Source: Candidatus Latescibacterota bacterium
GTDB lineage: Bacteria > Latescibacterota > UBA2968 > GCA-2709665
Length of the DNA stretch: 64,000 nt
Assembly (NCBI GenBank): GCA_965116875.1
Contig: OZ220733.1
Location: forward strand, 4,320,001 to 4,384,000
Direction: 5' to 3'
Both the position numbers and the translations under genes were made by a program. Under the pieces are notes generated by a model. It was not told where the DNA came from. It saw only the letters and a program-made list of their open reading frames with translations, and ran no database searches. Positions 25,471 through 31,526 of the stretch are shown piece by piece; positions within the stretch are counted from its first letter, which is position 1, and every line of letters starts with the position of its first letter.

Positions 25471-26628
25471 ATGTCCAAGCGTGACTATTATGACGTTCTT
25501 GGCGTGCAGCGCGACGCGACCGAGGGCGACATCAAGAAAGCCTATCGCAAGCAGGCGATGAAGTATCATCCGGACCGGAACGCGGGCGATGAAGAGGCCG
25601 CGGCCAGTTTCAAGGAGGCCGCGGAAGCGTACGAAGTCCTGGGCGACGCCCGGAAACGCCAGGTTTACGACCAGTACGGGCACGCGGGCCTGGGCGGTCC
25701 GTTCCAGGGCGGCGGCTTTCAGTGGTCCGACTTTACCCACGCAACCGATTTTGAAGACATCTTCTCCAACCTGGACGACGTGTTCGGCGGCGGGATTCTG
25801 GGCGATCTGTTCGGCCGCCGCGGGGGCCGGCGCGGTCCACAGCGCGGGGAAGACCTCCGCATACCGGTCCGCCTGACCCTCGAGGAAATCGCGTCTGGCG
25901 CCCGGAAGAGGATCCGGTTTGCCCGCATGGACAGGTGCGACACGTGCGCCGGAAGCGGGGCCCGTTCCGGGGCCGCGGCCAGGACCTGCAGCGTCTGCAA
26001 CGGGATGGGGCAGGTGCGTCAGGCCACGAGGTCTCTGTTCGGGCAATTCGTAAACGTCACCGCGTGCCCCCAATGTAACGGCGAAGGCAAGGTGATCGGC
26101 GACCGCTGTTCCGACTGCGGCGGCGAAGGACGGGCGAAGAAGACCGTCAGTCTGTCCGTCAATATCCCTGCGGGCGTGACCGACGGCAACTACATCCCGT
26201 TACGGGGGCAGGGGAGCGTCGGGCCCAGGGACGGGACCGCGGGCGACTGTATGGTGGTGATCGAAGAAGCGGAGCATGAGCATTTCGAGCGGCACGGCAA
26301 CGACATTCTCTATGAATTGCCCATAAGCTTCAGCCAGGCCGCGCTCGGCGCGGAGGTCACCGTGCCCACACTGAACAGCAGGGCCGAGATGAAGATCCCG
26401 GAAGGGACCCAGTCCGGGCAGGTTTTTCGCCTGAAGGGCAAGGGGATACCGGAACTGAACGGATATGGTACAGGAGACCAGCTGGTCCGCGTGATGGTCT
26501 GGACGCCCGCTCGTCTGAACGAGGAAGAGAAGACGCTGTTCAGGCAGCTTGCCGAACTCGAAAGCATCCAGCCTCCCGAAGGCGGAAAGGGCCTGTTCGA
26601 ACGCATGAAGGAGGCGTTCGGCGCGTAA
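25471..26628 (+). CDS. dnaJ: Chaperone DnaJ
   Basis: J domain with HPD, G/F-rich region, four CxxCxGxG repeats and the C-terminal domain. Confidence 0.98.
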
Positions 26629-26699
26629 CGTCCGTTATCGGCAAATTCGTATCCAACGCCGAAGAACACGGTGTGCGATCGCTGCATCGCGCGTTTCGC

Positions 26700-26883
26700 T
26701 TCTTTCGCAGTTTCGTATTCTCGTTTCTTCGTATTTTCGTCTTCTCGCAGTTTCGTCTATTCGCATTCTCGTAGTTTCGCTTATTCGTAATCTCGTATTC
26801 TCGCAGTTTCGTCTTTTTGTAGATTCGCCTTTTCGTAGTCTCGTATTCTCGTTCATTCGTTTCTACACAGTCTCGTAGTTTCT
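26700..26883. repeat. Degenerate 8-bp tandem array (23 units, consensus YNNNNTCG)
   Basis: Strict 8-bp phasing; TCG closes 20 of 23 units (e.g. CAGTTTCG, TATTCTCG, TAGTCTCG). Confidence 0.9.
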
Positions 26884-28319
26884 CATGCCAGCCTTGGGAA
26901 AAGGGGCTGGCTTTTTTGTATCCGCGATTTTGAGAAACCGGTCTCAATTCTACACGCTGTACCAGGAAGAAAGGGTCTCAAACCACGCGATATACCCAGA
27001 ACGGAACCGATCCAGGCCGAGAGGTGTTCATTCAACCTTTCGGACTTCTGCTTTTTCAGGAGTTCCCACGGTCGTGCCGCGTCGATTTCGCGGTTCAGCT
27101 TTCCGATGCGGACCCAGATGGCCCGGAGTGCGCCGGCGAAGTCGAACCTGTCCAGCGCGGCGCTTACGTCGGGCGGAATCCGGGTGTCGCGCGTCTCCAC
27201 CGGACCGTGACCGGACCTCTCGCAGAGCGATTCCAGCCGGCGTACCAGGTTGCCCAGGCCATTCGCCAGTTCCGTATTGTAGAGGTCCCGGAGCCGGGCT
27301 TCCGATACGTCTCCGTCCTCCCCGGAGCGTACGGCGCGGAGCAGGTAGTACCGGAGGGCGTCCGAGCCGTATTGCCGGATCAGAGGGAAAGGATCCACGG
27401 CGTTTCCATGGGACTTGCCGATCTTGCGACCCTCGACGGTCAGGTGTCCGTGGACGAAGAGGGTCCCTGGCAGCGGCAGGCCGGCCGAGAGCAACAGGGC
27501 CGGCCAGTAGATCGCGTGGAATTTGAGGATGTCTTTTCCGATCACGTGGATCCTGTCGGGGCAGTTCTTCCAGAAGCGTTCGAAACTGGCTGCGTTCGAT
27601 CCATAGCCCGGTCCGGAAAGATAGTTGGTCAGGGCGTCGAACCACACGTACATCACCTGCGTCGCATCTCCCGGAACGGGCACGCCCCAGCCTCCCGATC
27701 GCTCCCGATTGCGTGAAATGCTGAAATCCCGCAGTCCCCGGCGGATGAATCCAAGCGCTTCGTTTCGCCGGGTCTCAGGCAGAATGCGCAACTTTCCGGA
27801 CGCGATCAGGGTCTCAAGCACCTTCTGATAGGCGGACAGGCGGAAGAAATAGTTCGTTTCCTCGACGGGCTCGAGCTCGACGCCGTGTACGGGGCACCGT
27901 CCGTCCGTCAGGTCCCGTTTCAGATAGAAGTCCTCGCAGCCCACGCAATACAGACCCCGGTATTGTTTGAGTACGATATCCTCCTTGCGGCAGGCAAGCC
28001 AGAACCGGGAGGCCCCGCGGAAGTGCACATCGCAGGTGGAGCGAATAAAGCGACTGTGAGAGATATCGAGGGCGCCGGCGAGTTCCTGGAAGACCGCTGC
28101 GTTCCGGTCGCATAGCTGCCGGGGCGTCAGGCCTTCATTCGCGGCGGCCTGTACGTTCTTGAATGCGTTCTCGTCTGTACCTGTAAGCAGGAACGCGTCG
28201 TCGCCCTGCAGCCGGCGCCAGCGGGCGATCACGTCGGCCTGAACGAGTTCCAGCGCGAAACCCACGTGCGGCCGCGCGTTGACGTAGGGAATGGACGTCG
28301 ATACATAGCAGGACTTCAT
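26883..28319 (-). CDS. metG: Methionine--tRNA ligase, short form without the C-terminal tRNA-binding domain
   Basis: STSIPYVNA.PHVG, LTGTDEN, Y.GLYC..CE.F, EE.NYFFRLS, YVWFDAL.NY, IGKDILKFHAIYWPA, KIGKS.GN, LANGLGNL..R and PW. Confidence 0.93.
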   Translation of the reverse strand: MKSCYVSTSIPYVNARPHVGFALELVQADVIARWRRLQGDDAFLLTGTDENAFKNVQAAANEGLTPRQLCDRNAAVFQELAGALDISHSRFIRSTCDVHFRGASRFWLACRKEDIVLKQYRGLYCVGCEDFYLKRDLTDGRCPVHGVELEPVEETNYFFRLSAYQKVLETLIASGKLRILPETRRNEALGFIRRGLRDFSISRNRERSGGWGVPVPGDATQVMYVWFDALTNYLSGPGYGSNAASFERFWKNCPDRIHVIGKDILKFHAIYWPALLLSAGLPLPGTLFVHGHLTVEGRKIGKSHGNAVDPFPLIRQYGSDALRYYLLRAVRSGEDGDVSEARLRDLYNTELANGLGNLVRRLESLCERSGHGPVETRDTRIPPDVSAALDRFDFAGALRAIWVRIGKLNREIDAARPWELLKKQKSERLNEHLSAWIGSVLGISRGLRPFLPGTACRIETGFSKSRIQKSQPLFPRLA

Positions 28320-28336
28320 AGCGAATCCTTTCCGAT

Positions 28337-28377
28337 AAAAAAAGAAAAACCCACCGCCGATCCGCCGGCGGTGGGTT
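28337..28377 (-). terminator. Intrinsic terminator in the metG leader (attenuator)
   Basis: Minus strand AACCCACCGCCG-GCGGAT-CGGCGGTGGGTT then TTTCTTTTTTT, ending just before the metG RBS GGAAAGGA. Confidence 0.9.
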
Positions 28378-28406
28378 GGTCGATTCCGATACCAATGTCA
28401 TTCAGT

Positions 28407-28568
28407 TCAAGTCATGGGATGCTCCGCCGCGGGACGTCCGATAGAAATAGAGGACATCATGCACATCGAACTCGCAGCGACACGGGTCCACGCAATGCCG
28501 TGCGGACCGGATGAAGGTCGTTCCGAAACACCCGACCTGATGACTGAAAACTGAACGGATTTCATCAT
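28407..28568 (-). CDS. Putative metG leader peptide (53 aa) with an M-C-M-M cluster
   Basis: Hand translation MMKSVQFSVIRSGVSERPSSGPHGIAWTRVAASSMCMMSSISIGRPAAEHPMT*; GGGAG RBS; lies between the promoter and the terminator; not in the ORF track. Confidence 0.65.
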   Translation of the reverse strand: MMKSVQFSVIRSGVSERPSSGPHGIAWTRVAASSMCMMSSISIGRPAAEHPMT

Positions 28569-28593
28569 AAGCTCCCGTTATTGTGCGGGCGTA

Positions 28594-28622
28594 AAGATAG
28601 ATGGCACGCCTTGAATTGTCAA
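28594..28622 (-). promoter_or_regulatory. Sigma70-type promoter of the metG leader
   Basis: Minus strand TTGACA (28622-28617), 17 nt, TATCTT (28599-28594). Confidence 0.8.
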
Positions 28623-28779
28623 GCGCGGAATTTTCATCTAACTCTTGTCCTTTTCGCGGGATGGGCTTACATTGTCGAAGACGGCAAGATCGGAGATTCA
28701 CTCGCCTGTTGACCCGGTATACGCTATTGCCGGGCGCAGCGTGACTTTCGCTTACATCGCGGGAAACAGGGATTCGGAT

Positions 28780-29829
28780 TTGCTATTCTGGCTGGGAGAG
28801 CGTTTCGCTGACATTTACGGGCCGCTTCGGCTGTTGACGTCCTATCTGTTTCTGGCCGTCGTCGGCACGGCGCTGGCCGGGTTCTTCACCTGGCGCCTGC
28901 TACCCAGGTTGTGGATGCGGCTGCCCAAAGACCGCGGCCGGAAGTACGCCGTGGAGAACGAGCAGAGCCACGGCAAACCGGTGGGCGCGGGCATCATCTT
29001 CATACCGATCTACGTCGCCGTATGCATCCTTGTCCTCCCGCCGGGTTCCCAATACTGGCAGGTCCTCGGATGCGTCCTTCTCGCGATGGTGGCCGGCTTT
29101 CTGGACGATCGGAGTCCGGGGGGATGGGGAGAGTATCGCGTAGGCGCCATCGACCTGGGCATTTCGTTACTGGGCGCCATGGTCATCTGCCAGTTGGAAC
29201 CGGTTCAACTCTGGCTGCCGCTGATGAAGACGCCGGTATCGGTTCCGCCCTGGATTTTCGTACCCGGCGCCGCGCTGTTGATCTGGGTTTCAATCAACGC
29301 CACCAACTGTACCGACGGCGTGGACGGATTGTCGGGCAGTCTGAGCGTGATGGCCTTTGTCTACCTGGCCACGATTCTGTACGGGATCGTGGGACACCGC
29401 GACATCGCCAGGTACCTGCTGGTGCCGCATTACCCGGATGGCGCGGTCTGGGCGCTGTTTGCATTTATCATGGCCGGATGTCTGGCCGGCTACCTCTGGT
29501 ACAACGCGTATCCCAGTTCGGTGCTGATGGGAGACGCGGGCTCCCGGCCGATGGGCTTCCTGCTCGGCGTATTGGTTCTGGCGTGCGGCAATCCGTTTCT
29601 GATCGTGGTCGTCGCCGGCGTGGTACTCGTAAACGGCGCCACGGGGCTCCTGAAAGTTGCGTTTCTGCGGTTTTTGAATATCGGAATATTCAGGACGGTT
29701 CGTTATCCGCTGCACGATCACGTCCGGCACAAGAACGGCTGGTCGAATACCCATGTACTGGTGCGATTCATTCTGCTTCAGGCGTTCGTTACGCCAATCC
29801 TGCTGGTACTGCTGGTCAAGATCCGTTGA
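28780..29829 (+). CDS. mraY: Phospho-N-acetylmuramoyl-pentapeptide transferase (glycosyltransferase family 4)
   Basis: GKP.GAG, GFLDD, NATNCTDGVDGL, LWYNAYPS.VLMGDAGS and PLHDH....GWS; probable TTG start; not in a dcw cluster. Confidence 0.85.
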   Translation: MLFWLGERFADIYGPLRLLTSYLFLAVVGTALAGFFTWRLLPRLWMRLPKDRGRKYAVENEQSHGKPVGAGIIFIPIYVAVCILVLPPGSQYWQVLGCVLLAMVAGFLDDRSPGGWGEYRVGAIDLGISLLGAMVICQLEPVQLWLPLMKTPVSVPPWIFVPGAALLIWVSINATNCTDGVDGLSGSLSVMAFVYLATILYGIVGHRDIARYLLVPHYPDGAVWALFAFIMAGCLAGYLWYNAYPSSVLMGDAGSRPMGFLLGVLVLACGNPFLIVVVAGVVLVNGATGLLKVAFLRFLNIGIFRTVRYPLHDHVRHKNGWSNTHVLVRFILLQAFVTPILLVLLVKIR

Positions 29830-29837
29830 GTGACCCC

Positions 29838-30004
29838 TAATGTCCTGTCCCAAAAATTCCTCACCATTCGGCCGCCGATTCATCCCGTCTCGCTACGTTC
29901 CCCTCGCTCGCCGACCATACCCAGGTCGCCTGCGCTCCGGCGCCTTGCGAGACGGGCGACTCAGCGGCCAAATTTAGGCAACTTATTTCCGGGACAGAAC
30001 ACTA
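29838..30004 (+). mobile_element. MITE-like TIR element family C
   Basis: Imperfect TIR TAATGTCCTGTCCCAAAAAT / ATTTCCGGGACAGAACACTA; abuts the family A copy; single copy in the window. Confidence 0.7.
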
Positions 30005-30168
30005 AGAAGCTGTCTTAAAATACCCAGCGGTCTTCGCGCGGCTGCAAAAGCGTCGGTCGGCGTTGGTCAAACCCACCCGTATAGACAAATATGGGCGGGT
30101 TTTCCCGCCTTGACCGCCACTTTTTCGCTCGCGCTCGGGAACTCACCGGGAATTTTAAAACAGCTTCT
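30005..30168 (-). mobile_element. MITE-like TIR element family A, inverted copy
   Basis: Reverse complement aligns with 23544-23731 except for the central loop. Confidence 0.85.
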
Positions 30169-30179
30169 AAGAGGAGTGT

Positions 30180-31526
30180 ATGGACGGGAAAGAGGCGTTG
30201 AAGCGAAGGATCTGCGAAGCCATCGACCGCCGCCGCGGACAGATCGAGCGGATCGGGGAGCACATCATGGCCCACCCCGAGACCGGATTCAAGGAATTCG
30301 AGACTGCCAGGCTGGCAGTGAATACCATGGAAGAGTTCGGGATTTCACCGGAAACCGGGCTGGGAATCACGGGCGTAAAGGGGATCCTCCGCGGAGCGAA
30401 GCCCGGTCCGACGGTGGCCCTGATCGGCGAGCTGGACTCGCTCGTGGTACCGGACCATCCCATGGCGGACCCCGATACCGGCGCCGCCCACGCGTGCGGC
30501 CACAACGCCCAGATGGCCGGGCTGCTGGGCGCGATGATGGGGATGGTGGACACCGGCGCGGCCGAGTCCCTGGCCGGAAACGTCGTGTTCTTTGCTGTGC
30601 CGGCGGAAGAGTACATCGAGGTGGAATACCGGATGGGACTGGTCAGGGAAGGAAAACTGGAGTTTCTGGGCGGAAAACCGGAACTCGTGCGGCTCGGGCA
30701 ATTCGACGACGTCGACATGGCGGCGATGATCCACACACACAGCGATCCCAACATGAAGAAAGCCGCGATCTCCGAGTCGTGCAACGGATGCCTGGTGAAG
30801 ATGATCCACTTCATCGGCAAGGCCGCGCACGCCGGGGGCGCACCGCACCGGGGAATCAATGCGTTGAACGCCGCCCAGATTGCATTGGCGGCCATTCACG
30901 CGCAGCGGGAGACGTTTCGAGACAATGACGCGATCCGCGTTCATCCGATTATCACGAAGGGCGGCGATATCGTAAACGTGGTACCGGCGGAAGTCAGGAT
31001 GGAGACCTACGTCAGGGGAAAGACGAACGAAGCCATGCTGGACGCCAACGAAAAGGTCGACCGTGCGATCCGCGCCGGGGCCATGGCGGTGGGGGCGCGC
31101 GTGGAGATCGAAACGCTTCCGGGTTACCTGCCGCTTCGGAACGATCCGGCACTCAGCGCGGTTTTCGAAGCGAATTCAAGGACGTTGTTCGGGGAGGACG
31201 AAGTCTGTGAGGTCTCGCACCGGACGGGATCCACCGATATGGGCGACCTGTCCCACATCATGCCGGCGATCCATCCGTACATGGCCGGAGCGGACGGCGT
31301 GGGTCACAGCGCGGATTGGCACATTTCGGACATGGAAACGGGGTATCTGGCGCCCGCGAAATCGCTGGCGATGCTGGCGGTGGACCTGCTTCACGGCGAG
31401 GGCGAGACTGCGGCGGGTCTGCTCAGGGATTACAAACCGGCAATGACGAAGGACGAATACCTGGCGTTTCAGCGGGCGCTGTTCAAGACGGAGATCTACG
31501 ACGGTGCGGGCGCGGGTCGCGGATAG
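30180..31526 (+). CDS. M20D amidohydrolase (AbgB/ACY1L2-like)
   Basis: HPETGFKE, GELD, AHACGHNAQ, PAEE, GKAAHAG..P..GINALNA and GSTDMGD.S. Confidence 0.9.
   Translation: MDGKEALKRRICEAIDRRRGQIERIGEHIMAHPETGFKEFETARLAVNTMEEFGISPETGLGITGVKGILRGAKPGPTVALIGELDSLVVPDHPMADPDTGAAHACGHNAQMAGLLGAMMGMVDTGAAESLAGNVVFFAVPAEEYIEVEYRMGLVREGKLEFLGGKPELVRLGQFDDVDMAAMIHTHSDPNMKKAAISESCNGCLVKMIHFIGKAAHAGGAPHRGINALNAAQIALAAIHAQRETFRDNDAIRVHPIITKGGDIVNVVPAEVRMETYVRGKTNEAMLDANEKVDRAIRAGAMAVGARVEIETLPGYLPLRNDPALSAVFEANSRTLFGEDEVCEVSHRTGSTDMGDLSHIMPAIHPYMAGADGVGHSADWHISDMETGYLAPAKSLAMLAVDLLHGEGETAAGLLRDYKPAMTKDEYLAFQRALFKTEIYDGAGAGRG

Follow-up and report, generated by a model that had tools for sequence, protein, structure and literature searches.

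The window analyzed here is a stretch of 64,000 nucleotides (nt) of contig OZ220733.1 (assembly GCA_965116875.1, positions 4,320,001–4,384,000) from a genome of the uncultured phylum Latescibacterota (G000). It carries a gene for a short methionine–tRNA ligase (MetRS), metG2, at 26883..28319 on the minus strand, the strand of all window features below unless stated otherwise. A gap of 325 nt separates metG2 from a divergent gene for an MraY-like glycosyltransferase (28645..29829, plus strand), and this gap houses a complete leader: a promoter-like site, a small open reading frame (ORF) with clustered Met codons, predicted competing helices and an intrinsic terminator. The original prediction, made from the nucleotide sequence, had proposed a methionine-sensing attenuator at this place. 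By sequence inspection, the ORF list and a promoter and terminator scan, every element it named is present on the minus strand.

The promoter-like site TTGACA-17 nt-TATCTT (28594..28622; −35 box 28622–28617, −10 box 28599–28594) lies where it was predicted, and the orthologue alignment shows both hexamers conserved in 13/13 aligned orthologues. By count alone, promoter-like matches are no better than chance (1 found, 1.2 expected in a scan of 26500–30200). The same scan found no second promoter-like site before metG2, and an internal promoter for the gene was rejected on that ground. Downstream of the promoter come the Shine-Dalgarno site of the leader ORF, GGGAG (28572..28576), with a purine-rich GG(G/A)G block at its place in 13/13 aligned orthologues, then the ORF itself (28407..28565) and the terminator (28337..28377). 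The metG2 Shine-Dalgarno site, GGAAAGGA (28326..28333), follows the T-run by 4 nt, and the metG2 start ATG is at 28319. The 16 loci compared all retain this G/A-rich ribosome-site block (consensus GAAAGGA), though with variants. The 4-nt gap leaves no room for a promoter between terminator and gene; together with the lack of another promoter-like site, this means that transcription of metG2 must pass the terminator and depends on read-through. Another reading frame of the same strand contains a 99-amino acid (aa) ORF (28402–28701) that spans promoter and leader. Most orthologues have this frame interrupted, so it is probably spurious.

The leader ORF has 52 codons and a TGA stop (28409–28407), as established from the ORF list and the orthologue alignment. 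It had been described with 53 codons; a start at the in-frame ATG at 28568 would indeed give 53 aa (28568..28407), but this extra ATG is present in G000 alone. The second ATG, at 28565, is the conserved start: it is the sole ATG in the orthologues and is better spaced, 6 nt from the Shine-Dalgarno site. In this numbering the codons ATG-TGC-ATG-ATG (28455..28466), previously placed at codons 35–38, encode Met34, Cys35, Met36 and Met37. A further Met near the end of the ORF (codon 51 of 52), also listed in the original prediction, is ATG in 8/14 orthologues and Leu in the other 6, and is not counted as part of the device for that reason. A cluster of this density is rare. Across the whole genome and both strands, at least three ATG within four codons occur in 39 of 74,664 small ORFs (10–80 codons). 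Two look-alikes among the other 38 were inspected and rejected as further Met leaders because both lie inside longer opposite-strand ORFs.

We searched 168 genomes of the phylum by blastn with a 291-nt leader query. Near-full or extensive matches were confined to the window's genus, in G000 and 13 of the 14 other genomes, with one copy per genome, always before metG2. The remaining genome of the genus, G001, has neither the leader nor metG2. Ten matches cover about 260–291 of the 291 nt. Those in G009, G011, G012 and G013 cover the 3′ 124–156 nt only, and alignment confirmed the full leader in each. The in-genus alignments comprise 13 leaders, plus locus L121 for G011. From −35 box to terminator, all 13 aligned leaders measure 290–293 nt. 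The ORF, the Met cluster, a GCGGCG block and the terminator are kept in 14/14 same-genus genomes with metG2. The short metG of G011 itself (L017, G011:C5:1245477-1246908) matches in two pieces in different frames (residues 1–136 and 136–477), reflecting either a frameshift or a misassembly; the leader of this gene (L121) is intact, with a weaker terminator T-run.

The reading frame is held closely. The ORF is open and preceded by a Shine-Dalgarno site in all 14 genomes, and has 52 codons in 13 of them; in L006 a 1-nt deletion and a compensating 1-nt insertion move the stop two codons earlier, giving 50. Exactly 33 codons precede the Met cluster in 14/14, even in L009 and L121, whose first ORF half is unrelated in sequence. 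The cluster itself reads M-x-M-M in 13/14 orthologues, with C, Y or R in the middle, and M-Y-M-P in L012. The alignment of orthologous upstream regions, proposed with the original prediction as a check, thus found the Met cluster conserved, and clusters recur in leaders that cannot be aligned to this one (see below). Mean column entropy at codon positions 1, 2 and 3 is 0.67, 0.60 and 0.68 (13 sequences). Since the three positions vary equally while the frame is kept, the peptide is not under selection at the amino acid level, as expected of a leader peptide. No Pfam match was found for it, and a functional small protein was rejected on these two grounds, the lack of codon-position periodicity and of a Pfam match. 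In the window's genus the ORF has no run of any residue besides Met. Conservation extends to all three codon positions in several blocks, namely the Met cluster plus TCC-TCC, the two Ala codons GCGGCG (identical in 14/14 orthologues although Ala has four codons), CATCCC, ATGATGTCCTCC, TGAACTGAAT and the terminator.

More distant Latescibacterota orthologues of metG2 have leaders that are unalignable to the window's and also contain in-frame Met clusters. Among 23 likely orthologue loci, 22 have an upstream ORF (uORF) with at least two Met within seven codons, and 20 of those 22 have a terminator. No leader was seen at the remaining locus, L018, which is truncated and has an in-frame TGA. The leader peptides include ..STVRSSMGMPMSMRDTISVAVESPLDNST in L016 (Met cluster SMGMPMSM), ..STVRNGMGMSMRDRVSAAVEYPLDYRT in L135 (GMGMSM), ..STRSMGMHTHTAK..SAVDPPET in L136 (SMGMH) and MTDFSLQAPIAAQNPPMAMPRMTSRDSGECG in L137 (PMAMPRM), each with a terminator. 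L138 and L139 (family f4) have two tandem small ORFs, each with its own terminator, that are rich in His as well as Met; L014 and L015 have a different Met-containing uORF without a terminator. The peptides of L138 and L139 are MHHHHMMWVLAASALA, ..HMHHHHVMPAAW.. and ..HHYHFHCHAMPRAW..GGMSRMR.

The terminator is a stem-loop at 28377–28348 with loop CGGA, followed by a T-run to 28337. The original prediction gave it 12 bp and a U-tract; the hairpin and tract are there, and the scan counts 13 pairs including one G-T. We aligned it across 18 leaders, the 14 of the window's genus and those of L016, L135, L136 and L137. All 216/216 cells are paired and 6 of the 12 pairs change on both sides, which 0/500 shuffles reach. 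Covarying stems had been proposed as a check, and they are found here, but not within the genus for the antiterminator.

Three further helices could compete around this terminator. Local folds were used for them, whole-leader minimum free energy (MFE) folds having given noisy long-range pairings. Segment 1, TCGCTGCG (28473..28480), is a putative anti-antiterminator strand that pairs with 28431–28424. In local folds of codons 27–50, the helix of TCGCCGCG (28480–28473) with CGCGGCGG (28431–28424) forms in 10/13 leaders and encloses a hairpin, hairpin H (28433..28458), of GATGTCC (28458–28452) with GGACGTC (28439–28433). Hairpin H is the stem named in the original prediction, and its 5′ arm overlaps Met36 and Met37. 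L011 and L012 have a shifted and compensated version of the segment 1:2 helix, CGCCGUCGA with UCGGCGGCG. Segment 2, CCGCGGCGG (28424..28432), lies inside codons 45–48 and is the predicted 5′ strand of the antiterminator; it overlaps CGGCGGAG, which is present at 28429–28422. Its partner is segment 3, CCGCCGGCGG (28362..28371), the distal 5′ arm and loop of the terminator. RNAalifold, applied to the part downstream of a stalled ribosome, predicts a 9-bp antiterminator of CCGCGGCGG (28432–28424) with CCGCCG-G-CGG (28371–28362). In the in-genus alignment 89% of cells are paired for the segment 1:2 helix, 87% for hairpin H (with 0 pairs changed on both sides) and 95% for the antiterminator. With fits summarized as 93–95% of cells paired but hardly any variation, the helices prove nothing within the genus. 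A long-range helix of GTTCAG (codons 4–5) with TTGAAC in the stop region is lost in L009 and L121 and was not counted in the switch.

Comparison between lineages says more about the antiterminator. Column-wise counting across leader kinds fails because the pairing register differs by 3 nt, and per-sequence duplexes were computed instead: each 12-nt window of the ORF was scored against the terminator 5′ arm in 17 leaders (L121, L138 and L139 not included). The best partner of the arm falls within the last 5–12 codons of the ORF, 6–22 nt before the stop, in 16/17 leaders, with a near tie in L008. Segment 2 changes along with the arm. The pair is CGGCGG with CCGCCG in the window's genus, GGCAGUGG with CCGCUGUC in L016 and L135, and GACAGUGG with CCGCUGUC in L137; the segment 2 strand of L136 is CGGCGGUGG. 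Among the comparative results, this three-way match between lineages, of segments 2, 3 and the terminator 3′ arm (segment 4), gives the predicted antiterminator its strongest support.

Folding with a ribosome footprint, also proposed as a check, was applied to 14 leaders. The RNA was taken from codon 27 onward to the point at which the terminator loop has just been made, with no pairing allowed inside the footprint, and an antiterminator was called predicted at 5 bp or more. With the A site on Met34, the antiterminator is predicted in 14/14 leaders and the segment 1:2 helix in 0/14. The corresponding counts are 12/14 and 1/14 on Met36, 10/14 and 3/14 on Met37, 5/14 and 7/14 with the ribosome at the stop codon, and 7/14 and 5/14 with no ribosome. 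For the window's leader, the predicted antiterminator measures 8 bp with the ribosome stalled, 0 bp with it at the stop (where the segment 1:2 helix has 8 bp) and 9 bp without a ribosome. This predicted geometry fits the classical attenuation scheme. The original prediction held that stalling frees the antiterminator and that a ribosome at the stop codon occludes it; the folds agree with the first half (14/14 on Met34 against 5/14 at the stop), but in this model the occlusion is only marginal, as the trailing edge of the assumed footprint falls at CGGCGG, 21 to 15 nt upstream of the stop codon. The helix 28480–28473:28431–28424 and the Met-codon hairpin probably also sequester segment 2 once the ribosome has passed.

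The leader therefore has, by sequence, a short ORF with a ribosome-binding site and predicted translation, clustered codons for the very amino acid that the downstream synthetase charges (Met34, Met36 and Met37 before a MetRS gene), an intrinsic terminator between ORF and gene, and an antiterminator that in silico is exclusive with the terminator and dependent on ribosome position. These parts, their order, their conservation and the covariation of the terminator are apparent from the sequence and its comparison among genomes. We think it likely, with good confidence, that the leader controls the auxiliary short MetRS gene by ribosome-mediated (leader-peptide) transcription attenuation in which Met codons are read. 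Translation of the ORF, stalling and the switch itself we infer as follows. Transcription would start about 7 nt after the TATCTT box, and a ribosome would translate the 52-codon ORF while RNA polymerase proceeds. With plentiful Met-tRNA(Met), the ribosome would pass Met34, Met36 and Met37 and reach the stop codon. The ribosome would then enclose segment 2 or have only just cleared it, and this strand would be either masked or captured by segment 1 together with hairpin H; with segment 2 unavailable, the 13-bp terminator would form and transcription would end 4 nt before the metG2 ribosome site. With scarce charged tRNA(Met), the ribosome would stall on the Met cluster, where it would cover both segment 1 and the hairpin H 5′ arm while leaving about 25 nt between itself and segment 2. 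The freed segment 2 would pair with the terminator 5′ arm and loop, blocking the terminator and allowing metG2 to be transcribed.

Several results weigh against this account. With 6–9 bp closing a loop of about 55 nt, the antiterminator falls far below the terminator in strength, and any effect must therefore be kinetic. Segments 2, 3 and 4 are almost invariant in the genus and show no antiterminator covariation there (105/500 shuffles reach the observed values). The footprint used in folding, P site −12 to +15, is an assumption. Ribosome-free folds yield the antiterminator in half of the leaders, the window's own included, and the untranslated leader would therefore not necessarily default to termination. 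The antiterminator is still predicted in 5/14 leaders with the ribosome at the stop, and a terminating ribosome would not cover segment 2 in L016 or L135, where that segment ends 22 and 19 nt, respectively, upstream of the stop. Clustered Met codons number only two in L012 and L136. The f4 leaders are His-rich as well as Met-rich, and codon specificity is thus not purely Met in all lineages. Finally, a shortage of Met lowers fMet-tRNA as well, and hence initiation on the leader, which could blunt such a sensor.

The His codons of family f4, where runs such as MHHHHMM, HMHHHHVM and HHYHFHCHAM stand beside Met codons, would suit a general translation-status attenuator. Such a device would respond to any slowing of ribosomes on the ORF, by antibiotics, other scarce tRNAs or stress, with the Met codons one slow spot among several. 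The unusual length of the ORF and the fixed distance before the Met cluster in all 14 genomes would suit it too. The regulated gene, however, is a MetRS gene, the Met cluster is the only codon feature common to all leader kinds examined before metG2, and the window's genus has no run of any other residue; we regard this explanation as quite improbable. A translation-independent RNA element with an incidental ORF would explain the constraint at the RNA level, namely the blocks ATGATGTCCTCC, GCGGCG, CATCCC and TGAACTGAAT conserved at all positions, and the frequency of CAU triplets, which follows from the recurrence of CATG. This could be an undescribed riboswitch for Met, SAM or tRNA, or a site at which the synthetase binds CAU-containing stretches of the RNA that precedes its gene, in the way that ThrRS acts on thrS. 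Known families do not account for it. The Rfam scan proposed with the original prediction, which had seen neither T-box nor SAM-I, bears that statement out: cmscan of the whole window gave 0/4227 families at gathering score, T-box (RF00230) has no match at gathering score or at E up to 10 in 28250–28720, and SAM-I (RF00162) has no match in the whole genome. The leader thus matches neither these nor any other Rfam family at gathering score. The T-box model does find a different locus in G000, so a T-box here would probably have been detected. That T-box-like element (L143, G000:C1:3824184-3824466, plus strand) lies outside the window and scores 78.9 bits, below the gathering score of 93 (E 4e-17). 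Binding of tRNA in the manner of a T-box was rejected since L003, L007 and L008 lack the UGGN motif of the antiterminator loop, which is thus not conserved, and anticodon mimicry since the CAU in GAGCATCCC is CAC in L013. An untranslated element also needs neither frame, Shine-Dalgarno site nor in-frame ATGs, all of which are kept in 14/14 orthologues and in unrelated leaders. We find an element of this kind unlikely.

The ORF and its terminator might instead form an independent gene for a small protein or small RNA, with metG2 expressed by leaky read-through or from an unseen promoter and no sensing of Met. The strong terminator would be expected to yield a stable transcript of about 250 nt, and the permissive Rfam scan of 28250–28720 returned one partial likeness, to the Hfq-dependent small RNA Hrs13, at 19.4 bits where the gathering score is 52, and mainly over the terminator hairpin and a small stem before it. 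Against this stand the flat variability across codon positions, the replacement of the N-terminal half in L009 and L121 with length kept, the lack of a Pfam match, the occurrence of the element only before metG2 and never where metG2 is absent, and the mere 4 nt between T-run and metG2 ribosome site. An independent gene is, in our judgment, very improbable, and we retain the Met-codon attenuator as the most probable explanation of the leader.

The regulated gene is a MetRS gene, as predicted, but not the sole one: it is a second copy beside a housekeeping MetRS. The metG2 product (478 aa) scores 390.6 bits with TIGR00398 (cut-off 336) and matches Pfam PF09334. The housekeeping MetRS of G000 has 634 aa, a C-terminal tRNA-binding domain and 837.9 bits with NF008900 (cut-off 598). 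The two are 37% identical. At the HIGH and KMSKS motifs the short enzyme reads HVGF and KIGKS, the housekeeping one HLGH and KMSKS. HxGF is common in the short MetRS clade across many phyla, including Patescibacteria, and HVGF is for that reason not taken as a defect. The zinc knuckle reads CVGC...CPVH in the short MetRS and CVPD...CPEC in the housekeeping MetRS. At E up to 1e-110, metG2 has matches in 24/168 genomes of the phylum, though the G078 match, with 47% identity and a long open frame, probably falls outside the orthologues. No ORF with at least three Met in seven codons was found in 13 regions upstream of housekeeping metG (12 sister-family loci and G000's own). On the other side of metG2, between its stop (26883) and the dnaJ stop (26628), about 20 degenerate octamers, such as TTCGTATT and CTCGCAGT, are repeated in tandem (26693–26852; TRF periods 16, 24 and 56). 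At the equivalent place, 7/13 same-genus loci examined have arrays of the same unit in variable copy number, and the other 6 have none.

A second kind of uORF (..SHSxGGIS-Y/F-M-R/C-M-S..) occurs in L009, L012, L017, L014, L015, L135 and L136, in the last ~125 nt before metG2 and overlapping its start in another frame. In the MFE fold of 6/7 loci its CAUG-GCAUGUCC pairs with GGAC-UGCCAUG, the metG2 Shine-Dalgarno site and start codon. Matching changes are seen in this pairing, GCAUGUC/GACAUGC and GCGUGUCC/GGACAUGC; in L135 the pairing GCACGUC/GACGUGC was seen by eye only and is not in the MFE fold. Judged from these folds, the second uORF, which the window lacks, has the appearance of a translational attenuator reading Met codons.

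Outside the phylum we scanned 72 loci, 70 of them with enough upstream sequence (156 kb), under strict criteria: an ORF of 6–70 codons with at least three ATG in six codons and a terminator within 130 nt. Three matches were found on the sense strand, all directly before metG, versus 0 on the antisense strand. They come from the alphaproteobacterium Pelagibius sp. (L058; leader peptide MLYARTFFTSNMMMPVTMTGAA) and two Chloroflexota, an Anaerolineae genome (L059; ..SMSMVMRMRGIPRAP..) and a Ktedonobacterales genome (L068). The leader of L063 (Chloroflexota) is similar, judged by eye. Among cultured bacteria, Pelagibius sp. is a clear case, and Rhizobium sp. (L055) and Actinorhabdospora filicis (L075) have weaker leader candidates, in which the ORF was found but a terminator was not. 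In two other Chloroflexota loci, L060 and L085, the last 90 nt before metG hold a good promoter (TTGACG, 17 nt, TATACT in L060), then immediately a GC-rich hairpin and T-run, with no leader ORF, which makes this another type of leader in front of a similar gene.

Textbook cases of leader-peptide attenuation cover Trp, His, Leu, Thr, Ile/Val and Phe, and the known controls of Met genes are T-boxes, SAM riboswitches or repressors. In the trpL and hisL attenuators, segment 1 lies at the regulatory codons, segments 2 and 3 form the antiterminator, and segments 3 and 4 form the terminator with its U-run. The window leader shares this four-segment logic. It differs from trpL and hisL in lacking any sequence or covariance-model likeness to them (0 Rfam matches, their leader families included), in controlling a synthetase gene rather than a biosynthetic operon, and in Met codons that alternate (M-x-M-M) instead of forming a long run. 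Parallels that involve synthetase genes come from PMC1262725, which lists classical candidate attenuators before trpS2 (Streptomyces avermitilis) and leuS (Streptomyces), cites pheST in gamma-proteobacteria and sees no RNA element for methionine operons in Actinobacteria. Like the pheM-pheST, trpS2 and leuS attenuators as given there, the window leader places an ORF rich in cognate codons and antiterminator and terminator hairpins before an aminoacyl-tRNA synthetase gene, and like trpS2, metG2 is a second copy of its synthetase (PMC1262725). Unlike these, it is proposed to read Met, has an ORF of 52 codons with the predicted antiterminator strand inside it just before the stop, and belongs to an uncultured Latescibacterota host. 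The excerpt of PMC2965389 mentions no Met leader. Met genes of Staphylococcus aureus are under T-box control according to PMC3771891 and PMC7913692. As proposed for the window leader, the input there is charged versus uncharged tRNA(Met) and the output is read-through of a leader terminator; a T-box binds tRNA directly and needs no translation, and the window leader has no T-box match.

A search of full-text literature, with subscription journals outside its coverage, found no description of a Met-codon leader-peptide attenuator. The device is best filed as a new amino acid specificity (Met) of a known mechanism. What appears special here, from the sequences compared, is that a spare MetRS is controlled, that the ORF is long and of fixed length, and that sister lineages add a second uORF whose Met codons could pair with the Shine-Dalgarno site and start codon of the gene. 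A broader proposal, which we make tentatively and consider almost evenly balanced, places the leader in an as yet unpublished class of Met-codon attenuators, present in several phyla alongside short MetRS genes. Latescibacterota would have it as the first of two tiers of control over a backup MetRS, with the putative translational uORF of the sister lineages as the second.

If so, elongating ribosomes can read the charging of Met-tRNA despite the need for Met in initiation. This poses a conceptual puzzle: initiation on the leader itself needs Met-tRNA, and the device must discriminate elongator from initiator supply or tolerate fewer initiations. Analogous leaders in cultured bacteria make the idea of a Met attenuator directly testable, and in-frame Met clusters before short metG genes may help annotate regulation in uncultured phyla. 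For the Latescibacterota, the finding suggests that this uncultured phylum keeps a second, probably acquired, MetRS as an inducible backup.

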